From Candidatus Eiseniibacteriota bacterium (lineage in GTDB: Bacteria > Eisenbacteria > RBG-16-71-46): a DNA stretch of 64,000 nucleotides. Each line of letters opens with the position of its first letter. Positions within the stretch are counted from its first letter, which is position 1. This document shows positions 944-60,723 of the stretch, one piece after another. Location: contig CAVQXP010000004.1 in NCBI GenBank assembly GCA_963717935.1, forward strand, positions 960,001-1,024,000, given 5' to 3'. Made by a program: the position numbers and the translations under genes. The notes beneath the pieces are model-generated. The model was not told where the DNA came from. It saw only the letters and a program-made list of their open reading frames with translations, and made no database searches.

Positions 944-1983
<1,040 letters not shown>

Positions 1984-1987
<4 letters not shown>

Positions 1988-3516: not shown

Positions 3517-3630
3517 GGTGCGCGGAGCCTACCACGGCCCGGAGGGGTGGAGTGGGCAGCCCGCAGCGTCCTCGCGGAGGGCTTCCCGCCGACCGCTGCG
3601 GGCTGCCCCACGCGGCCTTCCCCCCGAACG

Positions 3631-4491: not shown

Positions 4492-4506
4492 GCGCCGGCG
4501 CGGGGC

Positions 4507-26197: not shown

Positions 26198-26845
26198 TCA
26201 GCGCGTGACGGTCACCTCGCCGCCGCGCTCGCGCAGCAACTCGCGGATCTTGGTCTTCACCAGGTCGATGGCCACCTTGTTGTGGCCGCCCTCGGGGATG
26301 ATGACGTCGGCCCAGCGCTTCGACGGCTCCACGAATTGCATGTGCATGGGCCGCACGCTCTCCTCGTACTGGCGGATGATGCTGTCGACCGAGCGCCCGC
26401 GCTCCACCAGGTCGCGCCGCAGGCGCCGGATGAAGCGCACGTCGGCATCCGCGTCGATGAACAGCTTGATGTCCATCAACTCGCGCAGCTCGGCGTCGGT
26501 GAAGATGAGGATGCCCTCGAGCACGATGATGAGGTGCTCGCCGATGTGGCGGGTCTCGTCCAGGCGGCGGTGCTCGGTGTAGTCGTAGATGGGCTGTTCG
26601 ACCGGCTCTCCCGACAGCAGCTCGCGGATGTGGCGCGTGAGCAGTCCGTTGTCGAAGGCGTCGGGATGGTCGAAGTTGCGGGACTCGCGGTCGCGGAAGG
26701 GGATGTTCTCGAGGTTCTTGTAGTAGGAGTCCTGGTCGATGATGACGACCCGGCCCGACCCCAGGTCGCGCACGATGTTCCGCGCGACCAGCGTCTTGCC
26801 GGAACCCGACCCTCCGGCGATCCCGATGAGGATTCGTCGCACCAT
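26198..26845 (-). CDS. udk: Uridine kinase
   Basis: GIAGGSGSGKT, DQDSYY, NFDHPDAFD, RRLRRD..ERGR, FVEPSKRWADVIIPEGG. Confidence 0.96.
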   Translation of the reverse strand: MVRRILIGIAGGSGSGKTLVARNIVRDLGSGRVVIIDQDSYYKNLENIPFRDRESRNFDHPDAFDNGLLTRHIRELLSGEPVEQPIYDYTEHRRLDETRHIGEHLIIVLEGILIFTDAELRELMDIKLFIDADADVRFIRRLRRDLVERGRSVDSIIRQYEESVRPMHMQFVEPSKRWADVIIPEGGHNKVAIDLVKTKIRELLRERGGEVTVTR

Positions 26846-28693: not shown

Positions 28694-29254
28694 ATGCACG
28701 AGCACGATGAATCCGAGGTCCGCCGTCTGGTGCGCGAGGCCGTGGACCGCGCGCTCGGCCCGGAGTCCGCCGCCGATCCGCGACCCGCGAGCCCCGCCTC
28801 CCGCCGCGTCGCCCTCGGCTCCGATCACGGCGGGTTCGAGCTCAAGGAGATCCTCCGCCAGTATGTCGCGGACGAGCTGGGCTGGGAGGTCCACGACTGC
28901 GGCACGCACTCCACCGACGCGGTCGACTACCCGGACTATGCCGCCGCGGTGGCGCGCGAGGTCGCGGCCGGCCGCTGTGCCCTTGGCATCGTGGTGGACG
29001 CGGCGGGCATCGGATCCGCGATGGCGGCGAACAAGATCGCCGGCGTGCGCTGCGCCGTGGGCCACGACGACCGCACCGTGCTCAACGGCCGCGAGCACAA
29101 CGACGCCAACATGCTCTCGCTTGGCGCGCGCGTCGTGAACCGGGGACTCGCGCAGCGCCTCGTGCGCCTGTTCCTCACGACCCCCTTCGCCGGCGGCCGT
29201 CACGAGCGCCGGGTGCAGAAGATCATGGCGCTCGAGCGCGGCTCCGGCCGGTAG
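28694..29254 (+). CDS. rpiB: Ribose-5-phosphate isomerase B (short N-terminal extension)
   Basis: LGSDHGG, VDYPD, GIGSAMAANKIAGVRCA, REHNDAN, FAGGRHERRV. Confidence 0.93.
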   Translation: MHEHDESEVRRLVREAVDRALGPESAADPRPASPASRRVALGSDHGGFELKEILRQYVADELGWEVHDCGTHSTDAVDYPDYAAAVAREVAAGRCALGIVVDAAGIGSAMAANKIAGVRCAVGHDDRTVLNGREHNDANMLSLGARVVNRGLAQRLVRLFLTTPFAGGRHERRVQKIMALERGSGR

Positions 29255-29292
29255 CGACGCCCCGGACACGACACCCCGACCCCACGAGGCCC

Positions 29293-30369
29293 ATGCGAAT
29301 CACCGAGCGAGTCATCCGGCGGCTGCCCAAGACCGACCTGCACTGCCACCTCGACGGCTGCCTGCGTCCGGGCACCGTCCTCGAGCTGGCCCGGGCGCAG
29401 GGCGTGAAGCTCCCGGCCCGCAGCCTGGCGCAGCTGACGAAGGTGCTGAAGGCGGGCAAGCGCACGCGCAATCTCGGCGAGTACCTCAAGATCTTCGACC
29501 TCACGCTGGCCGTGATGCAGGAGAAGGAGGCGCTCTACCGGGTCGCCTACGAGCTGGCCGAGGACGCCGCCGCGGAGAACGTCTGCCACCTCGAGGTGCG
29601 CTACTCGCCGATCCTGCACCGCAAGCGGAAACTCGACTTCGAGGACATCGTGGACACGGTCATCGCCGGCCTGCACGACGCGGGCAGCAAGTTCGGCATG
29701 ACCACGGGCGTGATCATCTGCGGCATCCGCTCGATGGACCCGAAGTTCTCGCTGGCGCTGGCCGAGCTGGCCGTGGCCTACAAGGGCAAGGGCGTGCTGG
29801 CCTTCGACCTGGCGGGGCAGGAAAAGGACTACCCGGCCAAGGCGCACCGTGCGGCGTTCGAGCTGATCCTCAAGAACAACATCAACTCGACCGTGCACGC
29901 GGGCGAGGCGTTCGGCCCGGCCTCGATCTCGCAGGCGCTCCATTACTGCGGGGCGCACCGCATCGGGCACGGCACGCTGTTGCTCGAGGACCGGGACCTG
30001 ATGCAGTACGTCAACGACCATCGCATCCCGCTCGAGATGTGCCTGACCTCGAACCTGCAGACCGGGGCGGTGCAGAACATCAAGGAGCATCCGCTCGGTC
30101 TGTACTTCCGCCAGGGCCTGCGCGTCACCGTGAACACCGACAACCGGCTCATGTCGGACACCACCGTGACGGACGAGATCAAGCTCGCCGCGAGCGCGTT
30201 CCGCCTCAGCCCCTACGAGGTCAAGCGGCTCATCATCAACGGCTTCAAGAGCTCCTTCCTGCCCTATGCCGCCAAGGCGCGCCGCCTGCGCGAGGTGAAC
30301 ATCGAGACGGACCGGATCTTCATGGAGGAGTTCCCGGACGAGTACGACCGGCGCCTGACGAGCTTCTGA
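29293..30369 (+). CDS. add: Adenosine deaminase
   Basis: LPKTDLHCHLDG, FDLAG, TVHAGE, RIGHG, CLTSN, NTDNRLMS. Confidence 0.93.
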   Translation: MRITERVIRRLPKTDLHCHLDGCLRPGTVLELARAQGVKLPARSLAQLTKVLKAGKRTRNLGEYLKIFDLTLAVMQEKEALYRVAYELAEDAAAENVCHLEVRYSPILHRKRKLDFEDIVDTVIAGLHDAGSKFGMTTGVIICGIRSMDPKFSLALAELAVAYKGKGVLAFDLAGQEKDYPAKAHRAAFELILKNNINSTVHAGEAFGPASISQALHYCGAHRIGHGTLLLEDRDLMQYVNDHRIPLEMCLTSNLQTGAVQNIKEHPLGLYFRQGLRVTVNTDNRLMSDTTVTDEIKLAASAFRLSPYEVKRLIINGFKSSFLPYAAKARRLREVNIETDRIFMEEFPDEYDRRLTSF

Positions 30370-32369
30370 TGGTTTCCCGTCCCGCCCTCCGGGCGCTCGT
30401 TCTCCTGTTGACGGTCCTGGTGCCCGCCACGGGCCTGGCCGCGTCCGCGGCGGCGGCGCCTTCCGCGGTGGCCGTGGACTCCATCCGGTATGCGACGACG
30501 CTCGCCGACGTCAACCAGGTCGGGCTCACCGTCACGAACTACGGATTCTTCGGCACCAACTTCACCTCGCGCTCGCCCTCCTTCGAGTACCCGCTCGGCA
30601 CGGGCTACGAGCACATGGCGCGCGGGGGCCTGTGGGTCGGCGCGCTGGCCCTCTCCGACACGGGTGCCTTCCTCGGGGTCTCGAGCGCCATCGTGGACAA
30701 CGCGCAGGGCACGGACGCCCTGTCCGAGACCGAGTTCACGCCGGCGAGCACGGGATTCGTGGAGTGGTCGCGCATCGCGAACAGCCCGGTCTTCTCTCCC
30801 GAAGCGGTCTCCGACCAGGATCTCAACTGCCTGTACTCGGACCAGCCGGGCCGCCCGCCGCGCGGGTACCAGGGTGAGGCCCATCGGCCGCTGCAGATCC
30901 TGGTCCGGCAGCGCACGCTGGGCTTCTCGCTGTCGGCGGCCAGCTCGTTCGTGATCCCGCAGTTCACCATCGTGAACCAGGGGCCGCCGCTGCGGGACGT
31001 CTACGTCGGGCTCTACGTGCAGCTCGTGAGCGGCGACAAGAACGCCTACGCCACCTGGCCACCCTCGGCCTCGAGCCCGGCGGGCTCCTGGTACTACAAG
31101 ACCCACTCCGAGTTCGACGCCCCGCGCCGGCTCTACAAGGAGCGCTACTGCGCGGCCGAGCCCTATCCGGCGAGCTGCAACATCGCCTACTGCCCGCCCT
31201 GGGCCGCGGTGAAGCTGCTGACCGTGAAGCCCGACACCATCGCCGGCAAGACGCTGAGCTTCCACTGGTGGAGCTACAGCCCGGGCGACACCGCGCGCGA
31301 CACCGATCGCAAGCGCTATGCCCTGATGAGCGACGGCGTGGTGGAGTCGGATTTCTCGAGCTGCGTGCCCGGGACCCAGAGTTGTTCGCCCATCATGGTG
31401 CTCTCGGTGGGGCCCTGGGCGCAGCTGGACCCCGGCGACAGCATCCGCGTGGATTTCGCCTTCGTCGGCGGCAACGACGAGCAGGCCCTGCTCGCGAACG
31501 CCGATTTCGCGCAGTTCACCTCGGACATCGACTACCGGCTGCCAGCTCCGCCGCCCTCGCCGCGGCTCCACGTCGGGAGCGGCGGCGGGCGCGTGGACCT
31601 CTACTGGGACGACTCGCCCGAGGGCGTCTCCGACCCGACGAGCCCCGCGCCGGACGGCATCGACTTCGAGGGCTACCGCGTCTACCTCGGCCTCGACCGC
31701 CAGAATCCCGGGCTGCTGGCGCAGTTCGACCGGTACGACGCGCCGCACGACACGATCGGCTTCAACACCGGGTTCGACGCCATCCGCCTGGCCACGCCGG
31801 TCACGCTGGACGGCGTGACCTATCGCTACAAGTACTCGATATCCGGGCTCAAGGACGGTTTCAACTACTTCGGCGCGGTCACCTCGTACGACCTCGGCGA
31901 CAGCAAGATCCCGAGCCTGGAGAGCGGCATCCAGCAGAACAAGTTCCAGGCCGTGCCCGCGCCCGCGCCGGGTGAGCGGGCCGGCGGGGTCACGGTGTTC
32001 CCGAACCCCTACCGCGTCGAGGCGCGCTGGGACGTGGGGCAGCGCGTGCGCGACCACTACCTGTGGTTCGCGAACCTGCCGAGGCGCTGCACGCTGCGGA
32101 TCTACACGCTCGCCGGCGACCGGGTCTTCGAGACGCGCTTCGAGGGCTCGTCCTACCGGGGCGAGGGCGCGCGCGGGCTCTACGATCCGCGCACCGACCG
32201 CGACGTGACGGCACCGTTCCTCTCGGGCGCCTCCTACGCCTGGAACATGATCACGAGCGAGGGGCAGGCGGTGGCGACGGGGCTCTACGTCTTCTCGGTC
32301 GAGGACCTCGACTCGGGCAAGGTGTCGCGGGGCAAGTTCCTGATCGTGAAGTCGGACCGCGAGGACTGA
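30369..32369 (+). CDS. Secreted protein with FN3-like region and T9SS-like C-terminal domain (paralog A)
   Basis: Sec signal; TNYGFFG, FEYPLG, PPPSPRL..DLYWDDSPE, DFEGYRVY, VFPNPY..LRIYTLAGD..TGLYVFSV..GKFLIVK; TGATG overlap with add. Confidence 0.8.
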   Translation: MVSRPALRALVLLLTVLVPATGLAASAAAAPSAVAVDSIRYATTLADVNQVGLTVTNYGFFGTNFTSRSPSFEYPLGTGYEHMARGGLWVGALALSDTGAFLGVSSAIVDNAQGTDALSETEFTPASTGFVEWSRIANSPVFSPEAVSDQDLNCLYSDQPGRPPRGYQGEAHRPLQILVRQRTLGFSLSAASSFVIPQFTIVNQGPPLRDVYVGLYVQLVSGDKNAYATWPPSASSPAGSWYYKTHSEFDAPRRLYKERYCAAEPYPASCNIAYCPPWAAVKLLTVKPDTIAGKTLSFHWWSYSPGDTARDTDRKRYALMSDGVVESDFSSCVPGTQSCSPIMVLSVGPWAQLDPGDSIRVDFAFVGGNDEQALLANADFAQFTSDIDYRLPAPPPSPRLHVGSGGGRVDLYWDDSPEGVSDPTSPAPDGIDFEGYRVYLGLDRQNPGLLAQFDRYDAPHDTIGFNTGFDAIRLATPVTLDGVTYRYKYSISGLKDGFNYFGAVTSYDLGDSKIPSLESGIQQNKFQAVPAPAPGERAGGVTVFPNPYRVEARWDVGQRVRDHYLWFANLPRRCTLRIYTLAGDRVFETRFEGSSYRGEGARGLYDPRTDRDVTAPFLSGASYAWNMITSEGQAVATGLYVFSVEDLDSGKVSRGKFLIVKSDRED

Positions 32370-34646: not shown

Positions 34647-35215
34647 GCGGAGGCCCTCCAGCCCGCCTCGAAGGCGGCGAGGTTCACCTCCAGCGCGCGG
34701 TCGCCCTTGGCCCCGAAGGTCTGGCGGATGGCGCCGTCGAACGACTCGCGCCGGAGCGGCAGCAGGTGCGCCGCGGCGCCGACCATGACGGTGTTCTTGC
34801 ACAGCGCGTCGCCGGCCTCGCGGGCGAGCCGCTCGGCCTCGACCAGCACGGCACGCGGCAGGCGCCGCACCTGGGCCACGATCTCCTCCTTCGGCGGGTA
34901 GTCCGGGATGTTGACGAACGGATCCGCCGCCGTGACCACGGCGGCCGTGGGCGAGAGGTACGCCACGTAGCGCAGGCTCTCGAGCGGCTCCATGGAGAGG
35001 ATCAGGTCGGCCGTGCCGAGCGGGATGAGGTCGCTCGCGATGACCTGGTCGGAGAGCCGCAGGTGGGAGAGCACCGCTCCGCCGCGCTGCGCCATCCCGT
35101 GCACCTCGGACTGCTTCACCTGGAGTCCCTCGGCCACGGCGGCCCGGCCGATCAGCGCGGCCAGGGACAGCACGCCCTGCCCGCCCACACCCGCCAGCAT
35201 GATGTCGTATTTCAT
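34643..35215 (-). CDS. iorB: Indolepyruvate:ferredoxin oxidoreductase beta subunit
   Basis: AGVGGQG, SEVHGMAQRGG, NTVMVGA, VNLAAF. Confidence 0.93.
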   Translation of the reverse strand: MKYDIMLAGVGGQGVLSLAALIGRAAVAEGLQVKQSEVHGMAQRGGAVLSHLRLSDQVIASDLIPLGTADLILSMEPLESLRYVAYLSPTAAVVTAADPFVNIPDYPPKEEIVAQVRRLPRAVLVEAERLAREAGDALCKNTVMVGAAAHLLPLRRESFDGAIRQTFGAKGDRALEVNLAAFEAGWRASA

Positions 35216-36828
35216 GACTTCTTCACCTCCACCTGCCTGCGCTTGCGGCGCGCCGTCTCGAGACACTCGCGCACGGCGATGACGACCGACAGGCCCCGGT
35301 GCGCGATCTCGCCGCGCAGCAGCTCGGCGATCTGCGGCACCTTGCGCGGCATGACCTCGACCACGTGCAGGTGCCCGGGTTTCACGCCCAGCCCGAGCAC
35401 GATGTCCTTCAGGCGTGAGGACGGCGCGATGGACTCCTGCCCGCCGGTCATGGCGGTGGTCTCGTTGTCGAGGATGATCAGCGTCATGTCGGTGTCCTCG
35501 TGCACGGCGTCGAGCAGCGGCGTGAGTCCGGAATGCAGGAACGTGCTGTCGCCGATGACCGCCACGGTGGGGCGGAAGCCGGCCTCCGAGGCGCCCTTGG
35601 CCATGCTGACCGAGGCGCCCATGCAGACGCACGACTCGATGGCGTCGTAGGGTGGCAGGGCGCCCAGGGTGTAACAACCGATGTCGGCGGTCACGATGCT
35701 CTCGGCCTGGCCCTCGAGCGCCTGCTTGAGCGCGTTGTACATGTGGCCGTGGGGACAGCCCTGGCAGAGCTGCGGAGGTCGCGTGGGGAGCGCCAGGTCG
35801 CCCAGGTCCGTGAGGGGCCGGGTCGGCAGTCCCAGCGCCGGGCGCACGTTGTCGGGCGTCAGCTCGCCCTCGGGGGGCACCTCGCCCGTCAGCTTCCCGA
35901 GGATGGGCAGCGGCGTGCCGAGCAGTCCGCGCAGCAGGCGCTCGACCAGCGGGTAGCCCTCCTCGAACACGAGCAGCCGCTTCACGTGCCCCGCCAGCCG
36001 GCGGATCAGGGCGAGCGGGAGCGGGTAGGCGCCGATGTGCAGGTGGGAGGGGCGGCTCTCGAGCCCGCTCACGTTCTCCTCGAAGTAGTTCCGCGCCAGC
36101 CCGGTGGTGATCACGCCCAGCTCGCGGTCGTCCGGGTTCAGCGTGAGCCGGTTCCAGCGGCAGTCCTCGCTCCAGGCGACCATCTCCTGCTGGCGGCCGA
36201 GCAGGTCGTGCCACTGGCGCCGGGCGTTGCTCGGCAGCAGGATCCACGACCGTGGCTGCGGGGCCTTGCGCACCGGGTTCTCGGGCCGCGGCTCGGCGGC
36301 CACCTCGATCGCGGTGCGGCTGTGCGCCAGCCGGGTCACCAGTCGCATCATCACCGGCACGCCGAAGCGTTCGGAGAGGTCGTAGGCCTCGAGCGTCATG
36401 TCGTAGGCCTCCTGCTGCGTCGCGGGCTCCAGGCACGGGACCCGCGCGAAATCGGCATAGAAACGGCTGTCCTGCTCGTTCTGCGAGGAGTGCATGCCCG
36501 GGTCGTCGGCGACCGCGACCACCAGCCCGCCGTGCATGCCCACCAGCGCCGCGTTCACGAACGGGTCGGCCGCGACGTTGAGCCCGACGTGCTTCATCGA
36601 GACCAGCGCCCGCCGTCCGGCGAAGCAGGCGCCGAGCGCCTCCTCCATCGCGGTCTTCTCGTTGGCGCACCAGGCCGCGAAGGGGCGGCCGTGCTTGCGG
36701 CGGTACTCGAGCAGGTACTCGAGGATCTCGGTGGCGGGCGTGCCCGGGTAGGCGTACGCCGAGGTCACCCCGGCGTGCACCGCGCCGAGCGCGACGCATT
36801 CGTCTCCTAGCAGGATCCTGCGGGGCAT
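35212..36828 (-). CDS. iorA: Indolepyruvate:ferredoxin oxidoreductase alpha subunit (no C-terminal ferredoxin domain)
   Basis: YPGTPATE, MKHVGLNVAADP, SSQNEQDSR, LCQGCPH, DIGCYTL, TPP motif IGDSTFLHSG..LDN. Confidence 0.93.
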   Translation of the reverse strand: MPRRILLGDECVALGAVHAGVTSAYAYPGTPATEILEYLLEYRRKHGRPFAAWCANEKTAMEEALGACFAGRRALVSMKHVGLNVAADPFVNAALVGMHGGLVVAVADDPGMHSSQNEQDSRFYADFARVPCLEPATQQEAYDMTLEAYDLSERFGVPVMMRLVTRLAHSRTAIEVAAEPRPENPVRKAPQPRSWILLPSNARRQWHDLLGRQQEMVAWSEDCRWNRLTLNPDDRELGVITTGLARNYFEENVSGLESRPSHLHIGAYPLPLALIRRLAGHVKRLLVFEEGYPLVERLLRGLLGTPLPILGKLTGEVPPEGELTPDNVRPALGLPTRPLTDLGDLALPTRPPQLCQGCPHGHMYNALKQALEGQAESIVTADIGCYTLGALPPYDAIESCVCMGASVSMAKGASEAGFRPTVAVIGDSTFLHSGLTPLLDAVHEDTDMTLIILDNETTAMTGGQESIAPSSRLKDIVLGLGVKPGHLHVVEVMPRKVPQIAELLRGEIAHRGLSVVIAVRECLETARRKRRQVEVKKS

Positions 36829-37077: not shown

Positions 37078-39872
37078 ATGCGTCTACCGAACCTCGCACT
37101 CCTCCTCGTCGTCCTCGCGCTGAGCGCGGCGCCCGTCGCTGCCCAGGATCGCGGGAGCATCGCCGGGAAGGTCTCCGACAAGCGCAGCGGCCACGCGCTC
37201 GCGTTCGCCAACGTGACGGTGGTCGAGGCCAAGCGCGGCGTGCTGACCGACTCCGAGGGGCAGTTCCTCCTCTCGGGCGTGCCGCCGGGCACCTACGAGG
37301 TCCGGGTCCAGTTCCTCGGCTACAAGCCCGAATCGCGCGCCGGCGTCGTGGTCGTGGGCGGCAGGACGGCCAGCGCCAACTTCACGCTCGAGGAGCAGGT
37401 GGTCGCGACCACCAGGACGGTCGAGGTCTCGGCCGAGCGCCGCCTGGTCGAGACGCGCCAGGGCGCCACGGTCCGCAGCGTGAACGCGACCGAGATGCGC
37501 AACCTGCCGGTGCAGACCATCGGCGAGGTGCTCCAGCAGCAGGCCGGCATCACCACCGAGAACGACCAGATCCACGTGCGCGGCGGCCGCGCCGACGAGA
37601 CCATCTTCGTGGTGAACGGCGTCGCCAACCGCGACCTGGTGACCGGCCAGTCCACGGCCGGTCAGTTGAACGCCCGTTCGGTGGCCGAGGTCAACGTCGC
37701 CACCGGCGCGTACGACGTGCGCTACGGCAACGCCCTGTCGGGCGTGGTGGAGATCAAGCTGAAGGAGGGCGGCGACAAGGCCACCGCCGGCGTGACGCTG
37801 ACCAGCGGCTCCTACGGCGGCCGCAACGTCCAGGCCGTGGTCGGCGGGCCCGATCCGCTGTTCGGACCGCTGTTCCGCGCGCTCCGCCTCCCGGGCCCGG
37901 TCACCGGGTTGCTCGACGTCTCGGGCAGCCTGTACCAGACGCGCTTCCTGTCGCCGGGGGGAACTCCTGGAACGTCTTCCAGAACGTCTTCATCCCCGAG
38001 GACCACCAGCGGCTGCGGACGAGCTACGAGGACAGCTTCCTGGGCACGAGCTTCCGCTACGGCGACGCGTTCTCACCTTCGCGCGACAACCGCTGGGCGG
38101 GGCGCTACGCGCTCCTGTGGAAGCCCGGGCAGCGCGACAAGGTGACGTTCGATTTCAGCAAGCGCATCGCCATCGACCAGGGCTTCAGCCGGACCTTCAT
38201 CACCGCCACCGGCGACCAGGGCGACCCGTCCTACCCGTGGATCTGGGATCACCGCATCGATCACGCCGGCACCACGTTCGAGGACAACGTGCAGTCCTCG
38301 GTGGAGTGGCGCCGCACGCTCTCGACCACCGGCTTCACCGTCCTGCAGCTCTCGCGTTACTTCTACGCGCGGCGCGAGGACGTGATGGGCAAGATGTGGT
38401 GGGAGTACGAGCAGCCCGACGACTACTCCCTGCCCGCGTTCCTGCCGGACGGGCAGCCGGACCCGCGCCGGACGGACTTCTTCATCGACACGGGCGACGA
38501 CAACACCTGGTCGGACCGCCGCAGCACGAGCTATGGCCTGCAGTGGGGCCTGACCCAGCGCGTCAATCGCCATGAGCTGGAGGTCGGGCTCGAGCACCAG
38601 TTCCAGACGGTGCAGTACGTCACCATCACGAACCCCTGGGTCTACGACCCGAACGGGCTGGGCGAGGCGCACGACCTGTGGCGGGTGCATCCCTGGGTGG
38701 GCGATTTCTACCTGCGGGACCGGCTGGAGTACGAGGGCTTCACCGCCAACATCGGCCTGCGCGCCGACTACTGGTTCGTGGGGCGCGAGGCCGAACGGGC
38801 CATCGCGGACACCGCCAACACGAACATCAGCACCGGCGTGCGCGAGGACTTCTACAACGACACGCACTCGCTCTTCGGCCGGCGCTACAAGCTGCGCATC
38901 TCGCCGCGCGTGATCGTGGCCCATCCGATCACGGCCAACAGCAGCTTCTTCTTCAATTACGGCGAGTTCACCCAGAATCCGTCGTACCGCTACGTCTATT
39001 CGAAGCTCGCCTCGATCTCGAGCGAGTCGTTCCCGCTGCTGGGGAACCCCGACCTGAACCCGCAGGTCTCCGTGAACTACGAGGTCGGGGCGAAGCACCA
39101 GTTCCTGTCCACCACGGCGGTCAACGTCACGTTCTTCCAGAAGGACATCTACGATTATCCCTCGGCGACGACCTTCAAGCGCTCGCAGGGCGCCAGCCTG
39201 GTGGACATCTTCGTCTACCTGAACGGGCATTTCGCGCGCTCGAAGGGCTTCGAGATCGAGATCGAGAAGCGGCGCAGCAACTACTGGTCCGGCAAGCTGA
39301 TCTACACCTTCCAGCAGACCAAGGGGAAGAGCAGCGACCCCAACGAGCAGCGCGTGGTGCAGGAGAACGGCGGCGATGCGGCCGAGACCCGGCTCTCGGA
39401 GACCTTCGTCTCGTGGAACCGGCCGCAGAAGCTGACGCTGGGCTTCGACCTGCGCTTCGACGACCGCGCGCCCGAGCGCTTCGGGTGGTTCAAGCACTCG
39501 GGCCTCAACGTCTACGTGCAGGGCCAGACGGGCCGCGCCTTCACGCCCATCAACCTCTATTCCACGCAGGCGGCCACGCCCTACTCGAGGAACGCGCCCT
39601 TCCAGATCACGACCGACGTGCGCCTGAACCACTACTTCCGGTTCAGCGGGCACCGGCTCGACCTGAGCCTGACCGGCCTGAACGTCTTCAACAACCACCT
39701 CATCTACCGCGTGGACCGGGTGACGGGGCAGGGGCGCGTCTGGGGCAAGGGCGAGTACGATCCGGCGCTGTTCCCGCGCGTCGACGAGTACACCTACGTC
39801 TCCCAGCTCCTCGACCCCTCGAACTACGGACCCGGCGCGCAGTACCGCCTGAGCCTCGACTATGACTTCTAG
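37078..39872 (+). CDS. TonB-dependent receptor with N-terminal carboxypeptidase-regulatory-like domain (frameshift in G6 run 37956-37961)
   Basis: Signal peptide; GSIAGKV..GQF..PPGTY; plug HVRGGR..YGNALSGVV; GNPDLNPQ..YEVG; ends YRLSLDYDF. Adding one G joins ORFs 37078..38145 and 38142..39872. Confidence 0.9.
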
Positions 39873-39882
39873 GGAGCGTCTG

Positions 39883-40869
39883 ATGCGCGGCCTCGTGCCG
39901 GCCCTCGTCCTCGCGGTGCTCCTCGCCGCGCCGGCGTCGGCGCAGTTCTCGCTCGGCCAGCAGCGCGCGGGCACGTCCTCGGGCACGTTCCTGAAGATCG
40001 GCATCGGGGCGCGCGCCGTGGGGATGGGCGAGTCGTTCGTGGCGGTCGCCAACGATCCGACCGCGATCTTCTGGAACCCGGCGGGGCTGGCCTCGATGCA
40101 GCGGCAGGAGATCTCCTTCAACCACCTGTCGTGGCCCGGTGACATCAACTACGAGCACGTCGCCTACGTGATGCCGGTGCGCCGGCTGGGCGGCTCGCTC
40201 GCCTTCCAGATGGGCGCGCTGTCGACGCAGATCGACGAGACCACCGAACTGCAGCCGTTCGGGACCGGGCGCTCGTTCTACTACTCGGACATCGTGGCGG
40301 GAGCGGCCTACGCGCGGCGCTGGACCGACAAGCTGCTCATCGGCGCCGGGCTGAAGTACGTGCGCGAGGACCTGGGCAGCGACGTGGGCGGCCCCGTGAC
40401 CAGCGCGCTCCTCGTCGACGTCGGTTCGATCTACTACCTGGGCTACGGCAGCGTGCGCATCGCCACCTCGCTCTGCAACTTCGGCGCCCAGCTCAAGCCG
40501 AGCGGCAATTTCATCTCGCCCGTGACCGGCGAGGAACGCTCCTACGACGGCTTCGACCCGCCCACGGTGTTCCGCTACGGCATCGCCTTCGAGCCGATCG
40601 AGAGCCAGCGCCAGAGGCTCACCACCTCGCTCGAGGTGAACCAGCCGTCCGACAACCAGCAGCTGGTGAAGCTCGGCCTCGAGTGGACCTGGGAGCGCCG
40701 GCTCGCCCTGCGCTCGGGCTACAACTTCAGCGCCGACGAGCTCAAGCTCTCGGCCGGCGCGGGCCTGTTCGCTTCGATCGGCCAGACCAAGGCCACGGTG
40801 GACTACAGCTACACCGACGGCGGATTCCTGGGTGGCATCAACCGGATCGCCCTGGGGATGAGGTTCTGA
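39883..40869 (+). CDS. PorV/PorQ-family outer-membrane beta-barrel
   Basis: FLKIGIGARAVGMGE, DPTAIFWNPAGLA, LALRSGY, C-terminal F. Confidence 0.88.
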   Translation: MRGLVPALVLAVLLAAPASAQFSLGQQRAGTSSGTFLKIGIGARAVGMGESFVAVANDPTAIFWNPAGLASMQRQEISFNHLSWPGDINYEHVAYVMPVRRLGGSLAFQMGALSTQIDETTELQPFGTGRSFYYSDIVAGAAYARRWTDKLLIGAGLKYVREDLGSDVGGPVTSALLVDVGSIYYLGYGSVRIATSLCNFGAQLKPSGNFISPVTGEERSYDGFDPPTVFRYGIAFEPIESQRQRLTTSLEVNQPSDNQQLVKLGLEWTWERRLALRSGYNFSADELKLSAGAGLFASIGQTKATVDYSYTDGGFLGGINRIALGMRF

Positions 40870-42068
40870 TGCGGCGCGCGCTCGCGGTCCTGGCCCTGTT
40901 CGTCGCGGCCGGCGGGTTCGCCGGCTGCGGCGGGAACTTCGCGCTGCCCACGGAGAGCCGCGACAAGGTCATCCCCAGCGACAAGAGCTACCAGATGGTG
41001 GCCACCTGGACCGAGATGAACGGCGTCCGCGACATCCTGCTGACGCAGGGGACGGGCACGCAGCTCTTCGTGCTCTTCAACCACGGCGGCACGGGCACGG
41101 CCTCGCGCGGCGAGGTGCTGGCCTATGCGCGCCTCAAGCCCACCGGACCGCAGACACCGCTCCCGGACATCGGGTTCCAGGGGCTCTTCAACCCGGTCGC
41201 GGTGTGCGCGGGCGGCGACGGCGCGGGCCGGTCGGCCAACCGCATCTTCATCCTGGACCAGGGCGACACCACCCTGGCGCGGGTCAACCCCCTGACGCAC
41301 ATCTACGGCGACCCGACCGGGATCGGCACCCCCGAGATGGGGAAGTGGTTGCTGAACGACGTCTCCGACTTCGGCCTCTACTGCCGCGTGCGCGAGTACG
41401 GCCTGCTCGGCGGGGACACGATCAGCACCTTCATCGACACGACGATGGCCATCGTGAACGGCATCGCGGCCGACGCCCAGGGGCGCGTGTACGTCTCCGG
41501 CGCCTCGATCGTCTTCGTGCGCGACGTCCTGAATCCGGTCTTCAGGGAGCGCACGCTCCTGTGGCGCGTCAACCGCTACCTGCGCGGGCCGCGCTACCCG
41601 GGGGTCTACGACTACTTCATGCCCGGTTCCAGCTGGCACCTCGACACGACCTGGGTGGTGAACGGCGGCAGCGGCGTCGGCACGGTTCGGGACCCGCGTG
41701 GCATCTTCTGGGGGCCCTACGGCGGCGGGGCGGTCTACGCCGCGGATTTCGGCAAGAACTGGGTCCAGAAGCTGAGCGACCTCTTCCCGAGCACGGGCTT
41801 CTTCGCCATCGACCAGGCCGGTTCGGCGCTGGTCGAGCCGCTGGACGTCACGGCCGACCCGCAGGGCTTCATCTACCTCACGGACACCGGCAACCAGCGT
41901 GTCCTGCGCTTCGACGGCACGGGTGGGTTCGTCCAGAGCGTGAACGTGGAGCTGGACGCCTTCGGCCGCTCCCTGCTGAGCCCCGTCACGGTCGCGGCGG
42001 ATGACTCGCTCGTGTTCGTGGGCGACGCCGGCCTGGCCGAGGTGATCCGCTACAAGAGGCGGCCGTGA
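40869..42068 (+). CDS. Lipoprotein with NHL/beta-propeller repeats
   Basis: Lipobox FAGC; GIAADAQGRVYV, PRGI..VYAAD, IYLTDTGNQRV, VFVGD. Confidence 0.75.
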   Translation: MRRALAVLALFVAAGGFAGCGGNFALPTESRDKVIPSDKSYQMVATWTEMNGVRDILLTQGTGTQLFVLFNHGGTGTASRGEVLAYARLKPTGPQTPLPDIGFQGLFNPVAVCAGGDGAGRSANRIFILDQGDTTLARVNPLTHIYGDPTGIGTPEMGKWLLNDVSDFGLYCRVREYGLLGGDTISTFIDTTMAIVNGIAADAQGRVYVSGASIVFVRDVLNPVFRERTLLWRVNRYLRGPRYPGVYDYFMPGSSWHLDTTWVVNGGSGVGTVRDPRGIFWGPYGGGAVYAADFGKNWVQKLSDLFPSTGFFAIDQAGSALVEPLDVTADPQGFIYLTDTGNQRVLRFDGTGGFVQSVNVELDAFGRSLLSPVTVAADDSLVFVGDAGLAEVIRYKRRP

Positions 42069-44119
42069 AGCCGTCCCTCCGGTCCGGCCTGGCTTCGGCG
42101 GCGCTGCTGCTGCTCTGTGCCCTGGCCCCGGCAGGGCCCGCGCGGGCCCAGGACGCCGTGGACCACCGTGGCCCGGCCCAGCCGGCGGCGGTCGCCGAGG
42201 TCATGGTCGACTCGATCCGCTACTCCACCAGGATCACCAACAACAACCTGGTGGGCATCACGCTCACGAACTACGGCTTCATCGGGAACAACTTCGTCTC
42301 CCGCTCGCCCTCGTTCGAATACCCGCTGGGCTCGAACAACGAGCACCTGGTGCGGGGCGGGTGGTGGATCGGGGCCCAGGCGATCGACGACCAGGGGGCG
42401 TTCACGGGCGTGTCCACCGGAGCGGTGGACGGCTCCCAGGGCAGCTCCGCGCAGGCGGCCACCGAGTACACGCCGGCGGGCCTCGAGCTCCGGGAGCGTT
42501 CCGCCCTCGCCAACAGCCCGGCCTACGACCCGACCGCCGTCAGCGAGGAGGACGTCATCGGTTTCTTCTCCGACGAGCCGGCGCGCCAGTTCAGCCCCGA
42601 GAACCACCGCCCGCTCAACCTCCTGCTGCGCCAGGAGAACTACGACTGGTCGTTCTCGGACTACGCGCACTTCAACATCTTCCACCTGGTCATCACGAAC
42701 ACGGGGCTGCCGCTGCGGAACGTCTGGGTGGGGATCTACGGCGAGCTGGCGAGCGGGACGCGGGCCGACTACAGCGTCTGGCCGCCGAGCTCGAGCTCGA
42801 GCACCACGGGCAGCTGGTTCAGGAAGAAGTGGGTCCAGTACGACGACTCGCTGCACCTCTTCCGCGAGCACTACTGCTTCAACCTGCCCGTGCCGGACGG
42901 CTGCAACCTGAGCCACGTGCCGGAGTGGGTGGGCTACAGCGTGCTGGGCGCCAAGCAGGGCGCCGGCACGGTCTCGGTGCTCCCGGAGAAGCAGGTGACC
43001 CTGGCGGCGTGGTCCTACGACCCGGGCAGCGCGCTGCGCGACCAGGATACCGAGCGCTATGACATCATGAGTTCGGGGCTGATCCAGGACCTGGCGGAGT
43101 CCCCCGATTTCCAGCCCTTCACGGGGGATCCCGTCGAGTTGCTCGCGGTCGGGCCGTTCGAGCAGATCGACCCGGGAGACAGCATCTCGGTGGACTTCGC
43201 CTTCGTCGGCGGCGCCGAGATCGAAGACATCCAGAAGCGCGCCAGGCTGGCCCGGCGCGCCTACGACCTCAACTACGTCGTGCCCGTGCCGCCGCCCTCG
43301 CCGCGCCTGAAGCTGGTGGCGCGCGAGCAGGCGGTGGATCTCTACTGGGATGATTCGCCCGAGAACGTCCCGGACCCGACCAGTCCCGACCCGCTCGACT
43401 TCGAGGGGTACAGGCTCTACCTCGGCGAGGACCGGCTGGATCTCAGGCGCATCGCCCAGTTCGACCTGGCGACGGCACCTCACGACAGCACCGGCTTCAA
43501 CACCGGCCTCGGCGCCTGCCGGCTGGCGGACCCGGTGACCATCGACGGCGTGCCCTACCAGTACCGCTACACGGTGCGCGGGCTGCGCGACGGCTTCCGC
43601 TACTTCGCCGGGGTCACCGCCTACGACCTGGGCACCCCGGACATCGAGCCGCTCGAGAGCGGCATCTCGCAGAACAAGACCCTGGTCATCCCCGGACTGG
43701 CGCCGGGGGAGACCGTGAGCGGCGTCACGGACAAGGTCATCGTCTTCCCGAACCCCTACCGGGTCGAGGCCCGCTGGGACGTGGGGCAGAGGGTCCGCGA
43801 CCACTACCTGTGGTTCTCGAATCTTCCCGAGCGCTGCGCGCTGCGGATCTACACGCTCTCCGGGGACCTGGTCTTCGAGACCGACTTCGACGGCGGCTCG
43901 TACGCGGGGCAGGGCGCGCGTGGCGTCTACGACCCGCGCCGCGAACTGGACGTGGAGGCCCCCACGCTCTCCGGCACGAGCTACGCGTGGAACCTGATCA
44001 CCCGCGAGGGCCAGGCCGCGGCCACCGGGCTGTACCTCTACTCGATCGAGGACAAGACCGGGAAGCGGCAGCGGACCGTGGGCAAGTTCCTGATCGTGAA
44101 ATCGGACCGGGAGGAATGA
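42065..44119 (+). CDS. Secreted protein with T9SS-like C-terminal domain (paralog B of 30369..32369)
   Basis: Colinear with paralog A along its length; identical FPNPYRVEARWDVGQRVRDHYLWF and GKFLIVKSDRE. Confidence 0.82.
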   Translation: MKPSLRSGLASAALLLLCALAPAGPARAQDAVDHRGPAQPAAVAEVMVDSIRYSTRITNNNLVGITLTNYGFIGNNFVSRSPSFEYPLGSNNEHLVRGGWWIGAQAIDDQGAFTGVSTGAVDGSQGSSAQAATEYTPAGLELRERSALANSPAYDPTAVSEEDVIGFFSDEPARQFSPENHRPLNLLLRQENYDWSFSDYAHFNIFHLVITNTGLPLRNVWVGIYGELASGTRADYSVWPPSSSSSTTGSWFRKKWVQYDDSLHLFREHYCFNLPVPDGCNLSHVPEWVGYSVLGAKQGAGTVSVLPEKQVTLAAWSYDPGSALRDQDTERYDIMSSGLIQDLAESPDFQPFTGDPVELLAVGPFEQIDPGDSISVDFAFVGGAEIEDIQKRARLARRAYDLNYVVPVPPPSPRLKLVAREQAVDLYWDDSPENVPDPTSPDPLDFEGYRLYLGEDRLDLRRIAQFDLATAPHDSTGFNTGLGACRLADPVTIDGVPYQYRYTVRGLRDGFRYFAGVTAYDLGTPDIEPLESGISQNKTLVIPGLAPGETVSGVTDKVIVFPNPYRVEARWDVGQRVRDHYLWFSNLPERCALRIYTLSGDLVFETDFDGGSYAGQGARGVYDPRRELDVEAPTLSGTSYAWNLITREGQAAATGLYLYSIEDKTGKRQRTVGKFLIVKSDREE

Positions 44120-45615
44120 TGCGGCGCCTCGTCGTTGCCATCGCTCTGCTGGGCGCCCTGGCGGCGCTGCTCGCGGGCTGCGGGCCGAAGGGCACGCTGA
44201 AGCCCAACGTGCCGCCGGTGGCCAGCATCTTCATCCAGGGGCCGGTGGACACGGTCAACCACAACGTCCACCTCTACTGGTTCGGCACCGACCCCGACGG
44301 CTACGTGACGGGCTTCGACATCCGTTTCCTCAACCCGAGCGCGCCCGCCGACACGCAGTGGTCGTTCACGACCAAGACCGACTCGCTCTTCTCGATCTAC
44401 ACGCCGGCCGGATTCGCCATGCCGGCCTTCGAGGTGCGGGCCATCGACGACGGGGGCCTCAAGTCGGCCATCGCGCGCCAGGACTTCAAGTTCAGCAACC
44501 TGCCGCCCGCGGTCACGCTCCAGGACCGTTTCGGTCTCACGGACACGACCTTCGCGTCCGCCACCCTGCGATGGACGGCGAGCGACCCGGACGGGGACGG
44601 GACGAAGCTCCGCTTCCGCATCTGGCTCGACGGGGACGAGGCGAATGCCAGCCTGGCCGCGGGCTCGAGCTTCACCGTGCCGACCGCCCAGTTCCTGCAG
44701 GGCGGGCAGTTGCTCTCGGGCTACCGCCAGGCGTTCATCCAGGCAGTGGATGACGGCGGCATGCTCAGCCCGGTCGACAGCGTTCGCTGGTACGTGCGCG
44801 CCCCGGCGACGGGGGGCCACTACCCGCATTTCGGCAGGCTGCTCATCATCGACGACGTGCCCCGGCTCTTCTCCGCGAACTTCACCACGGACACGATCTA
44901 CTACAACAGCGCCGCGCGGAACCTGCTCCCCGGGGAGTACAGCATCCTCCAGATGGACTTCACGCAGCCGTTCCGCTCGGCGAAGGACCTCGAGCAGACC
45001 TTCAAGCTCTTCGACGCGGTGGTCTGGTACATCGGCGGGACGGCCGATTTCCGCACCTACGAGACCACGCTGGCGAACTACCAGGCCGGGCTCGCGGCCT
45101 ACCTGGAGGCGGGCGGCAACGTCTACCTGGACGGACAGGACCTGATCAACGGCCTGCACGCCCGCGGTCCCCTGAGCGGGGACTTCGTCTCCCAGTACCT
45201 GGGCAGCGACTTCCTGTTCCAGTACTACAGCCCGCTGGTGCAGGACTCGACCGCGGGGTGGTCGAACGCCAATCCCTCGTTCTTCGTGAGCCGCTGGGGG
45301 GACTCCCTCCGGGTGCAGCAGCTGGCCGTGGCGACCGGGTACAGCCTGGGCGGGTTCCGGGCCTTCGGGGTGAGGGACAACCAGTTCACCCTGATCAGGG
45401 CCGCTCTGGCGCCGCTGGGGTCGCTCCTGCCCTCCGGCATCCTCCCTCCGGAGGTCCCGGTCGCGGTGTCCGTGCCCCAGCCCTCGGGGGGGCGGTTCGT
45501 CCTGGTCACGTTCCCGCTGCGGGCCGCCTCCACGCCGCCCCTGACGATGCCGCAGTACTATACCGTCCACCGGTTCATGGCCAAGGTCTTCCAGGAGTTT
45601 GGCCTCGCCCCGTAA
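44116..45615 (+). CDS. Lipoprotein with two Ig/FN3-like repeats and an alpha/beta C-terminal domain
   Basis: Lipobox LAGC; W.(G/A).DPDG twice, RAIDDGG/QAVDDGG, LLIIDD, VVWY, YLEAGGNV. Confidence 0.75.
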   Translation: MMRRLVVAIALLGALAALLAGCGPKGTLKPNVPPVASIFIQGPVDTVNHNVHLYWFGTDPDGYVTGFDIRFLNPSAPADTQWSFTTKTDSLFSIYTPAGFAMPAFEVRAIDDGGLKSAIARQDFKFSNLPPAVTLQDRFGLTDTTFASATLRWTASDPDGDGTKLRFRIWLDGDEANASLAAGSSFTVPTAQFLQGGQLLSGYRQAFIQAVDDGGMLSPVDSVRWYVRAPATGGHYPHFGRLLIIDDVPRLFSANFTTDTIYYNSAARNLLPGEYSILQMDFTQPFRSAKDLEQTFKLFDAVVWYIGGTADFRTYETTLANYQAGLAAYLEAGGNVYLDGQDLINGLHARGPLSGDFVSQYLGSDFLFQYYSPLVQDSTAGWSNANPSFFVSRWGDSLRVQQLAVATGYSLGGFRAFGVRDNQFTLIRAALAPLGSLLPSGILPPEVPVAVSVPQPSGGRFVLVTFPLRAASTPPLTMPQYYTVHRFMAKVFQEFGLAP

Positions 45616-45646
45616 GTGGTTGAGTCCTGCGGTCTAGCACCCCCGG

Positions 45647-45679
45647 ACGCCCGGGCCCGCTCGAAGCGGGCTCGGGCGT
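45647..45679 (+). terminator. Hairpin after the TBDR operon
   Basis: ACGCCCGGGCCCGCT-CGA-AGCGGGCTCGGGCGT followed by a T-richer tract. Confidence 0.55.
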
Positions 45680-45694
45680 TACTCGTTTATCCGC

Positions 45695-45723
45695 TTGGGA
45701 CTTAGCCCCAGTCCTGCTACAGT
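45695..45723 (+). promoter_or_regulatory. Sigma70-type promoter with a long leader for the 45877 gene
   Basis: TTGGGA-17 nt-TACAGT with an extended TG. Confidence 0.5.
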
Positions 45724-45876
45724 TACCGCGGTCTAGGTTCGTCTCGTTCCCCGCTTTCGCGGTTCCTCGGACCGCTTAAGACTCCGGCTTGGCCGCAGGG
45801 AGGTTAACGCCCGAGTTATATCCTGTCCCCCGACCTGCTCCGTTCGGACGTCCTGCTCAACAAGGGGTGTGACATC

Positions 45877-47883
45877 ATGACTAAGGCTGCAACCTGGATT
45901 CTCAGCGCACTGCTTCTCACCGCCCTCGTGGCGATGCCGGCTCTGGCGGGGCAGTATCCGCCGACCTGCGCGGACTCGATCAGCATCTGGAACATCCAGA
46001 ACCCCGCGGCGCCCTGTCATCCGGTCGACACGGACACCGTCTGGGTCGGCATCGGTGGCGTCGTCACGGCGCTCGACACCAAGACCTCGGGCGTGGGCTT
46101 CTACATGCAGCTCTCGGGCGGGGGCCCCTACACCGGCATCAACGTGTTCACCGCGAACACGATCTGGCCCGTCGCAGTGGGCGACAGCGTCATCGTCCGG
46201 CCCTCCAAGGTGACGGAGTACGGCGGCGAGACGGAGATCGCCGCGCTCGACGGCTCCTTCGGCGCCAACCTCAAGGTCTACAAGGTCCTCGGTCCGACCG
46301 CCCTCCCGCCGTTCTACGAGGGGACCACGACCGACTTCAACACCCTGGCGACCAATACCGCCCTCGAGCCGTACGAATGCGGCCTCGGCAAGGTCCTTCC
46401 GCGCGGCGGGCCGCTGCGCGTGGCCCGGGTCTACTACGCCGCGTTCTCGGTGGTGGACAGCGCGTGCACGAGCGGTATCTGCGACTCCGTGTACGTGAAC
46501 ATCACCACGCTCCCGAACCCCAGCCTCGGCGTGCCGCCGCTCAACACCACGCTCTCGTACGTCCAGGGCATCGTGAGCCAGAGTGCCGCCGGCTACGCGA
46601 TCAAGATGCGGGACGACAACGACTGGTATCCCTCGGTGAATCCGCCGGTGGTCGCGGACGCCTACGCGATCAAGGACGACAGCGTCCGCGTCGTCTTCGA
46701 CAAGCAGGTGACCCAGGCGAGCGCCGAGGACGCGAGCAACTACTCGCTGGCGACGTTCGGGGCGACCGTGAACTCGGCCACCCTCGAGCCCAACGGCTCG
46801 TGCGTGATGCTCAACATCACGAACGGTCTCGGCCACGGCGTCAAGGAGACGGTGAACGTCAGCGGCGTGGTGGCCGTGGTCAACGGCAAGGCCATGGTGG
46901 GCATCATGTCGAGGACCTTCTGGAATGGCCTCACGCCCATCGCGGACATCCAGGCGCCGGACCCCGCGAGCCTGCTGGCGGACCCCTGCCTGGATCGCTC
47001 GCTCTTCGCGGGCCTGGGCTCTGCAGCCGGCGCCGAGAAGGTCACGTACCGCGGAGTCTGCACGGCCGCCTTCCCCGGAGGCCTCTACTACGTGCAGGAC
47101 GCCTCGAGCCCGACGCGCGCCGGCCTGGCCACCTACGCGCCGATCATCCCGCTGGTCGTGGGGCGCCAGTACCTGCTGGTCGCCAACATCCAGGAGTACT
47201 ACGAGGAGACCGAGTCGCTGTACAACGTGTACGTGCGCGACGAGGGCGTGGCGACCCCGCCGACCCCGGTCGTCCAGACCGCCGCCGTGCTGCGTGACGC
47301 GACCTGCGATGCCTCCCAGTCCATCACCAACGGAGAGGACTACGAGGGCATGCTGGTCCGGATGAACTGGGTGATGTCGCTCGCCGACACCACCGTGCCC
47401 GGCTACGGCTTCGACGTGGCCGATCCTCCGTATTCCGCCTACACGGACTCGATCCACATCCGCAACGTGCAGTCCAGCGCGGGCTGGACCTACGCGGCCG
47501 TCCCGGACATGCTCCTGGACGTCACCGGCATCCTGACCTACAGCTTCGCCACGATGCAGGTGGCACCGCGCTTCGACTCCGACTTCGTGGATCACGGGGC
47601 GCTCGACGTGCCGCCGGGGACGCTCTCGAAGGTCTCCTTCTCGGCCTACCCGAACCCGGCCCGCGTCACCAAGGTGAGCTTCGCGCTTCCGAAGCAGTCC
47701 GTCGTGGACCTCTCGGTGTACGACCTGTCGGGCCGCAAGGTCGCCTCGCTTGCCAGCGGTTCCATGCCCGCGGGACAGTACACGCGTGACTGGGACGGCG
47801 GCGGCGCCGGTGCGGGCGTCTACTTCGTCCGCCTCCGGGTCGATTCGGAGACCTACAACATCCGCACCGTCAGCCTGAAGTAG
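45877..47883 (+). CDS. Secreted protein with tandem YhcR/ExeM-type OB folds, an Ig-like domain and a type A T9SS sorting domain
   Basis: GVVTA..GFYMQ..GINVF..VAVGDSV..VTEYGGETEI; GVCTA..YYVQD..IQEYYEETE; EDYEGMLVR; V.FDKQV...SAEDASNY; AYPNP..VYDLSGRKV..GVYFVRL. Confidence 0.78.
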   Translation: MTKAATWILSALLLTALVAMPALAGQYPPTCADSISIWNIQNPAAPCHPVDTDTVWVGIGGVVTALDTKTSGVGFYMQLSGGGPYTGINVFTANTIWPVAVGDSVIVRPSKVTEYGGETEIAALDGSFGANLKVYKVLGPTALPPFYEGTTTDFNTLATNTALEPYECGLGKVLPRGGPLRVARVYYAAFSVVDSACTSGICDSVYVNITTLPNPSLGVPPLNTTLSYVQGIVSQSAAGYAIKMRDDNDWYPSVNPPVVADAYAIKDDSVRVVFDKQVTQASAEDASNYSLATFGATVNSATLEPNGSCVMLNITNGLGHGVKETVNVSGVVAVVNGKAMVGIMSRTFWNGLTPIADIQAPDPASLLADPCLDRSLFAGLGSAAGAEKVTYRGVCTAAFPGGLYYVQDASSPTRAGLATYAPIIPLVVGRQYLLVANIQEYYEETESLYNVYVRDEGVATPPTPVVQTAAVLRDATCDASQSITNGEDYEGMLVRMNWVMSLADTTVPGYGFDVADPPYSAYTDSIHIRNVQSSAGWTYAAVPDMLLDVTGILTYSFATMQVAPRFDSDFVDHGALDVPPGTLSKVSFSAYPNPARVTKVSFALPKQSVVDLSVYDLSGRKVASLASGSMPAGQYTRDWDGGGAGAGVYFVRLRVDSETYNIRTVSLK

Positions 47884-60452: not shown

Positions 60453-60723
60453 CGGATTCTCCTTCGATCGTGTTCGACATGTCCCGGTCGTGGACATGGC
60501 AAGAAGGCAGGCAGCGCCCTCGATGAACCTCGCTTTCCCGCCCGGTCGAAGGTCATGACCCTGTCAAGAATCATATATCATCAGGGGCGCGTCGGATATG
60601 ACGATCTTCACTCCGCTGCGGGCGCAGGAGTCGCGCGAAGGGGCCCCGGAGCACGCGCCCTGCCACCCGACGCACTGCGGCCCGTCCCGGGTGCGGGGTG
60701 GGCCGCGGCGCTCGCAGGCGGGT

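Follow-up and report, generated by a model that had tools for sequence, protein, structure and literature searches.

A conserved six-gene outer-membrane cassette of Eisenbacteria and Bacteroidota-side bacteria joins a TonB-dependent receptor to its own PorV-family barrel and may import nucleic acid

How do abundant sediment, soil, and water bacteria with many TonB-dependent receptors (TBDRs) capture polymers when no SusD is found in the Eisenbacteria searched? The question is raised by one locus of a Candidatus Eisenbacteria genome (NCBI GenBank assembly GCA_963717935.1). We analyzed a window of 64,000 nucleotides of this genome (contig CAVQXP010000004.1, forward-strand positions 960,001 to 1,024,000), in which six outer-membrane genes lie on the + strand at 37078..47883. 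They encode a TBDR, a small barrel, two lipoproteins (40869 and 44116, named by start position like the other genes below), and two secreted surface proteins (42065 and 45877). A first-pass annotation had described a receptor that lacks SusD and has its own PorV-family paralog, and this architecture stands: the six genes keep together as a conserved unit in two phyla. From the sequences, the substrate looks more like nucleic acid than glycan, and we believe that, on balance, the cassette would capture extracellular nucleic-acid fragments for TonB-driven import as a nutrient.

The coupling of the first five genes was confirmed in both coordinates and junctions. The TBDR and barrel genes are 10 nt apart, and the next three junctions are overlaps: TGATG between the barrel and 40869, GTGA between 40869 and 42065, and ATGA between 42065 and 44116. 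A gap of 261 nt then separates 44116 from 45877, and the hairpin within it is weak (a consensus match only, with one site found versus 4.1 in shuffled sequences). One RNA run covers much of the locus, but as contigs, which do not show transcription.

For Eisenbacteria, we picked 54 loci by homology to 42065 or 44116 and removed nine without a TBDR in view and one trio-type locus (TBDR, variant-tail protein, and PorV-family barrel), leaving 44. The order TBDR-PorV-NHL-42065-lipoprotein-OB was present in 37 of these, and its first five genes stood in this order in 43. Among the other seven, five loci stop at contig edges and two have no adjacent OB-fold gene. For the Bacteroidota side, the intact TBDR of a relative was searched against 151 genomes from the phylum to which an Ignavibacteria genome belongs, with five candidates scored per genome, and gave a clear top match in 40. 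Loci from 34 of the 39 other matching genomes and from three Ignavibacteria genomes made up a set of 37, and 33 of them had the permuted order 42065-OB-lipoprotein-TBDR-PorV-NHL. The remaining four are each short of one gene at the thresholds used; a Pfam scan restores the NHL gene in one. The barrel directly follows the TBDR in all 81 loci, and, among the scored candidates, a genome usually has a single copy of the cassette. A lack of conserved synteny, which would have refuted the first-pass reading, was thus not observed on either side. The 44116 profile matched 96 of 151 genomes of the Eisenbacteria phylum at an E value of ≤2e-72. Four Eisenbacteria families (42 genomes) gave at best weak domain matches to it, so the cassette is not universal.

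The receptor has a signal peptide, a carboxypeptidase-regulatory-like domain, a plug (PF07715, 36.1 bits; cut-off, 23.9), and a barrel (PF14905, 31.5 bits; cut-off, 27), and intact orthologs carry both of these Pfam domains. In the window it appears as two open reading frames (37078-38145 and 38142-39872) because one G is missing from the G run at 37956-37961; the extra G was present in all four runs compared. Thirty related reading frames (26 cassette orthologs and four trio-type receptors) keep both halves in one frame. Together, these two observations rule out a genuine split or a programmed frameshift. The earlier call of a TonB-dependent receptor therefore holds, but not as an intact gene, given this one-base assembly error. 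SprA is likewise split across frames in the same assembly. The receptor is not a SusC protein, as TIGR04056 gave 31 bits on the N-terminal half and nothing on the C-terminal half (cut-off, 368; halves scanned separately). As had been noted, no locus protein matched a SusD family. None of the 41 genomes (the host and 40 relatives) gave a match to PF07980, while the positive control did; other SusD-like Pfam families were not searched genome-wide. Having neither a SusC-family receptor nor SusD, the locus was rejected as a SusC/SusD system.

The small barrel belongs to the PorV/PorQ family (NF033709, 168 bits; cut-off, 90) and has a match to the PorV structure 6H3I. It falls below both equivalogs, with 62 bits for PorV (NF033710; cut-off, 250) and 79 for PorQ (NF033711; cut-off, 220). 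In our tree, 31 cassette barrels of both phyla lie together across a branch (90/96, not starred) from seven trio-type barrels, and the PorV encoded next to porU falls outside the cassette group. The host genome has nine PorV-family matches in about six genes. The gene count and the tree placement exclude the barrel as the sole or housekeeping PorV and bear out the proposal of a paralog dedicated to this locus. Separately, the host genome contains a second, trio-type locus (L144:5810-12609; G000:C5:17807-24609) with a TBDR, a 979-amino-acid (aa) protein with a variant C-terminal domain (CTD), and a PorV-family barrel; after it come glycolysis genes and, in a relative (L066), a GWxTD-like gene.

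What would such a barrel hold? The AlphaFold2 model of 42065 (pLDDT, 94.5) consists of a beta-supersandwich, an FN3-like sandwich, and a C-terminal tail. The supersandwich resembles domains at the N termini of GH15, GH94, and GH116 enzymes (Z, 17 to 19.5), and since neither the model nor the fold search showed a catalytic barrel, we rejected 42065 as a glycoside hydrolase. Column counts show conserved polar residues (His, Glu, and Asp) and Trp. Pfam has no family for 42065, for its paralog 30369, or for 44116, and the Atlas matches of 42065 are unnamed clusters. Its variant CTD, reported previously, is indeed a distinct tail class. NF052228 matches 42065 weakly, and the nearest solved structure is the uncleaved tail of PorZ (5M11, residues 687 to 776; Z, 11.7; root-mean-square deviation, 2.1; 88 aligned residues; 26% identity). 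A GKFxIxK-type motif ends the tail in 65 of 76 orthologs. Rough gene calls gave 53 CTD-like proteins, and the tail profile of 42065 is the preferred one for just four of them, namely 42065, 30369, the neighbor of the C5 trio barrel, and a fragment without a nearby barrel. By analogy, anchoring of 42065 on the barrel in the manner of PorQ-PorZ is plausible. The 30369 paralog, 55% identical to 42065, is a duplicate within the order according to a quick tree; it directly precedes the TBDR in several relatives and lies 4.7 kb from it here. A cluster of CTD proteins elsewhere in the host genome (L143:4551-17224; G000:C4:872551-885224) includes a fragment with a 42065-type tail and two lipoproteins that share the FN3 start of 44116; no TBDR or barrel was seen nearby.

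The other secreted protein, 45877, carries the type A CTD that had been assigned to it (TIGR04183, 40.6 bits; cut-off, 23). It has two mutually similar OB-fold modules flanking Big_5 and no nuclease domain, and it is not a lipoprotein. Its family profile matches the noncatalytic part of the EEP nuclease 9SF8 (E, 1.2e-8), and the two modules also match PLD and EEP proteins, in their DUF5689 region, as well as the central part of an endonuclease I-CTD protein of the host. PF18942 (DUF5689) itself is weak, in 3 of 27 family members; the Atlas matches of 45877 scored below 0.9, and five DdbD-like lipoproteins gave no match to the module profiles. The evidence points to 45877 as a likelier binder than 42065, the capture partner proposed in the first-pass annotation.

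Of the two lipoproteins, 40869 is an NHL-repeat protein (PF01436, 37.1 bits, with PDB profile matches). The second, 44116, had been called an Ig-repeat lipoprotein. That description is incomplete: in the AlphaFold2 model (pLDDT, 83.7), the lipoprotein has, besides two FN3/Ig domains, a class I glutamine-amidotransferase-like domain. No conserved Cys was found at the inspected elbow of this domain in column counts, and a PDB sequence search with 44116 gave weak matches only. Another lipoprotein in the window (58146-60497, - strand) has an N-terminal FN3 region like that of 44116 (54 bits).

Export of the two surface proteins would need a secretion system, and the suggested search for sprA and porU found both SprA and a PorU-like C25 protein in the host genome, along with 45 type A CTD matches. 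SprA_N was found in 37 of the 41 genomes. A gene for a C25 peptidase with a CTD immediately precedes another PorV paralog, and we read this pair as a putative porU-porV. The suggested search for porKLMN was less complete: GldM/PorM was above the cut-off in 0 of 41 Eisenbacteria genomes. The same model did pass in 36 of the 151 Bacteroidota-side genomes but in 0 of the 40 that have the cassette, a pattern that tracks lineage and gives no independent support. GldL and GldN were not found in the host genome, a result without a positive control. Apparently, then, this is a type IX system with SprA, a PorU-like protein, and PorV paralogs but without a known motor. For Melioribacter and Ignavibacterium, passages of PMC11705866 describe PorV, SprA, and Plug without other type IX proteins. 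The host also encodes, 10 kb before the window, a further C25 peptidase that has a propeptide and a CTD (L150:6024-10307; G000:C4:946024-950310).

Table 1. Features of the cassette and of its upstream neighbors in the 64,000-nucleotide window
Feature	Position	Strand	Basis
TBDR, ~930 aa	37078..39872	+	Pfam/NCBIfam, frame check, single reading frame in relatives, extra G in 4/4 runs
PorV/PorQ-family small barrel, cassette-specific paralog	39883..40869	+	NF033709 168 bits, 6H3I PorV match, tree
NHL-repeat beta-propeller lipoprotein, lipobox FAGC	40869..42068	+	PF01436, PDB profile matches, N terminus
Secreted beta-supersandwich (no catalytic barrel) + FN3 + PorZ-like variant CTD	42065..44119	+	AlphaFold2 model, fold searches, NF052228 weak match, CTD class
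Lipoprotein (lipobox LAGC), two FN3/Ig domains + class I glutamine-amidotransferase-like alpha/beta domain	44116..45615	+	AlphaFold2 model, fold searches, column counts
Terminator-like hairpin before last gene	45646..45680	+	Consensus match alone
Secreted protein, two OB-fold modules (ExeM/NucH/DUF5689 type) around Big_5, type A CTD	45877..47883	+	9SF8 match, Pfam, NF033681, TIGR04183, module profiles
Paralog of 42065, same variant CTD, order-level duplicate	30369..32369	+	Sequence identity, synteny, CTD class, quick tree
RpiB-family isomerase + adenosine deaminase (ADA), translationally coupled to 30369 paralog	28694..30369	+	Pfam, synteny

From this genetic linkage and these folds, we infer the contacts and the substrate in the following scheme. 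SprA would export 42065 and 45877. The cassette barrel would then hold the uncleaved tail of 42065 and so keep this protein on the surface, in the way PorQ does with PorZ, a step that we consider likely by analogy. We also think it probable, with slightly less assurance, that 45877 takes the housekeeping PorV/PorU route and then binds DNA or RNA. CTD-tagged nucleases encoded elsewhere in the genome would cut nucleic acid, the TBDR would take up oligonucleotides, and ADA, DeoC, and RpiB would process the imported products. We suggest only tentatively that 42065 caps the receptor; the cap could instead be one of the two lipoproteins, or there may be none.

We propose nucleic acid as the substrate because of the nuclease-type OB modules, the nuclease neighbors, and ADA, DeoC, and RpiB. 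Neighbors were counted with five nuclease/phosphodiesterase queries, all drawn from genes beside the cassette. An EEP, tandem-HKD PLD, or NPP gene was present in 27 of the 81 loci, on the same strand and within 3.6 kb in 26. These three families are unrelated and occur in different lineages. In three of four same-genus loci, the gene immediately before the TBDR is an EEP-CTD gene. In one Eisenbacteria family and in Ignavibacteria, an OB-FN3-PLD-PLD-CTD gene comes after the cassette; its product has two HxKxxxxD motifs, and its solved relatives are Zucchini and Nuc. Other loci have EEP-CTD genes after the cassette, and 13 loci of one clade have an NPP-family gene there. The same queries matched 0 of 6 trio-type loci (a small control), and when 24 of the 83 genes around seven trio-type loci were scanned with Pfam, no secreted nuclease was seen. 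Elsewhere, the host genome encodes two EEP-CTD proteins and one LTD-OB-endonuclease I-CTD protein. ADA, DeoC, or RpiB was linked in 29 of 44 Eisenbacteria loci, and a 5'-nucleotidase adjoins one more; in the host, rpiB-ADA lies 6.7 kb upstream of the cassette. Genes at 944-6145 and 26198-26845, which we take to encode a BMP-type nucleoside ABC transporter, thymidine kinase, and uridine kinase, share the 64 kb with ADA and RpiB. No carbohydrate-active enzyme was found among the conserved neighbors scanned, which were a subset of the neighbors. An Eisenbacteria genome is listed with several secreted nucleases in part of PMC11495043.

Several observations weigh against a nucleic-acid importer. 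The host locus itself contains no nuclease, 54 of the 81 loci match none of the five queries, and the 27 that do are kin rather than independent, representing perhaps five or six recruitments. The queries were chosen from cassette neighbors and the control was small. The EEP Pfam scores in the host genome are borderline (23 to 25 bits), and the EEP, PLD, and NPP families act also on lipids and other phosphoesters. None of the 37 Bacteroidota-side loci shows ADA/DeoC/RpiB linkage, and in Eisenbacteria the linkage could simply reflect chromosome synteny. One family (three loci) has no adjacent OB gene, and the fold of 42065 is common to sugar-active enzymes. Finally, two acidic residues follow the lipobox Cys in just 1 of 30 and 1 of 29 orthologs of the two lipoproteins, and such residues are described as the export mark of Bacteroidota surface lipoproteins in a portion of PMC12578637. 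Both lipoproteins may therefore face the periplasm, or the Bacteroidota mark may not apply in the Eisenbacteria phylum.

The sugar-type fold leads directly to the rival that survives best, in which the substrate is a glycan or another polymer and 42065 is a barrel-anchored lid of the TBDR with an oligosaccharide in its supersandwich. The GH15, GH94, and GH116 matches described above fit this version, the conserved His, Glu, Asp, and Trp of 42065 could build a ligand site, and lipoproteins are missing from the trio-type loci that encode related proteins. However, the supersandwich is not the catalytic domain in those enzymes, the recurrent neighbors are nucleases and phosphodiesterases, and the proteins scanned included no conserved glycoside hydrolase neighbor, only one distant debranching enzyme and one CBM9 protein. 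We therefore regard a glycan as improbable.

If the neighbors were instead phospholipases or phosphatases, the cassette could serve a broad scavenging of phosphoesters, such as phospholipids, cell-wall polymers, or organic phosphate. The top PLD matches do carry the name cardiolipin hydrolase, the NPP and EEP families are promiscuous, and single loci are flanked by a phosphoesterase or a patatin. Yet the OB/DUF5689 module is found fused both to these catalytic domains and to endonuclease I, and DeoC, RpiB, and ADA suit nucleosides, so that we give this version little chance. A main role in taking up long DNA for natural transformation seems to us about equally doubtful. A TBDR with an OB-like partner has been linked to transformation in the Riemerella system related to ddb (sections of PMC12478041), the core six genes hold binders and no nuclease, and the usual single copy (among the candidates scored) would suit such a role. 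However, the recurrent neighbors are nucleases and nucleoside-catabolic genes, and no competence gene was found among the conserved neighbors scanned, although no genome-wide competence search was made. The least probable idea is an envelope or secretion accessory, a BamG-like scaffold on a big barrel that supports a type IX system without a GldLM motor; it draws on BamG, a PorV/FadL homolog that docks on BamA and holds a lipoprotein (part of PMC12578637), on the missing GldM described above, and on the high conservation and low copy number, which are housekeeping-like, but the GldM pattern follows lineage, four Eisenbacteria families, one of which has SprA (G038), have no full-length cassette lipoprotein, and the nuclease neighbors are left unexplained.

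We next place the proposed nucleic-acid importer beside known systems. The closest in logic is ddbABCDEF of Bacteroidales, which, in sections of PMC12478041, shares a TBDR, an OB-like putative DNA-binding partner, the lack of SusD, an organization like a polysaccharide utilization locus, and downstream nucleobase deamination; the secreted nucleases of ddb have counterparts at 27 of the 81 cassette loci and none at the host locus. Five TBDRs encoded beside DUF5689 genes, our proxy for DdbC, scored 20 to 32 bits against the cassette receptor profile and only in the N-terminal part, in contrast to at least 490 for cassette orthologs, and we rejected membership in ddb on these scores. In addition, the OB protein is a CTD protein here and a lipoprotein in ddb, nucleases are optional neighbors in cassette loci, and the main text of PMC12478041 has no occurrence of PorV or T9SS. 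Five genomes with GldM (L151 to L155) have a pair of a TBDR and a DUF5689 lipoprotein of the ddb/Riemerella type; none is among the 40 cassette genomes. It is conceivable, if unlikely, that a TonB-driven pore, a scaffold barrel of type IX origin, a barrel-anchored lid, and a secreted OB catcher form one complex, an ancient machine with a range from Bacteroidota to Eisenbacteria that takes up polymeric DNA for both food and transformation. If true, lineages whose type IX system has SprA, PorU, and PorV and lacks the GldLM motor would have their own counterpart of ddb, and secretion-system parts would prove to have been rebuilt as an importer.

The anchoring step has published precedents. PorQ-PorZ and PorV-PorU are pairs of the type IX attachment complex (parts of PMC10947112 and PMC11285876), cognate PorP/SprF shuttles serve type B CTDs (part of PMC12618676), and cognate barrels serve special CTDs (part of PMC9143113); an uncleaved CTD protein anchored on its own barrel is itself already published (within PMC10947112 and PMC12618676). 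Like these pairs, the cassette encodes a dedicated small barrel beside a protein with a non-type-A tail, which is nearest that of PorZ. Unlike them, its barrel is below both equivalog cut-offs, has its own tree group, and is linked with genes for a TBDR and two lipoproteins, and the putative cargo is a supersandwich rather than the PorZ propeller. Non-SusD lids are likewise known from Bacteroides (portions of bioRxiv 10.1101/2023.03.17.533168 and PMC12478041), where, much as proposed for the cassette, long-barrel TBDRs are co-transcribed with candidate surface partners that include a beta-propeller lipoprotein. However, the cassette has neither SusC nor SusD, and all lids in that preprint are lipoproteins, with no occurrence of PorV or type IX there. 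In BamA-BamG-BamH of Bacteroidota (portions of PMC12578637), a PorV/FadL-family barrel also sits by a large barrel with a surface protein on its loops; in the cassette, the large barrel is a TBDR and the contact is putative. The cassette thus combines known principles, and the combination itself is apparently undescribed: the literature searched, which excluded most subscription journals and supplements, apparently holds no description of these six genes together.

With conserved genes and a predicted substrate, the cassette lends itself to testing, and the bacteria that carry it become candidate recyclers of extracellular DNA. The findings further suggest anchoring of importer partners by PorV-family barrels and continued delivery of surface proteins by a type IX system that lacks the known motor.

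A few further observations concern the surroundings. In the window, the stretch between the 30369 paralog and the TBDR (32385-36828, - strand) encodes indolepyruvate-oxidoreductase-like subunits and an acyl-CoA synthetase, an arrangement found in this genus and missing from most other genera of the family. One Ignavibacteria genome (G158) has cassette pieces on three contigs (L102, L103, and L106), which are either true duplicates or a mixed bin. Another host locus (L146:4517-8064; G000:C2:74517-78064) has a short TBDR gene overlapped by that of a 478-aa CTD protein, whose N terminus we take to be a YncE/BtuG-type propeller, possibly a CTD-tagged lid of a vitamin receptor.

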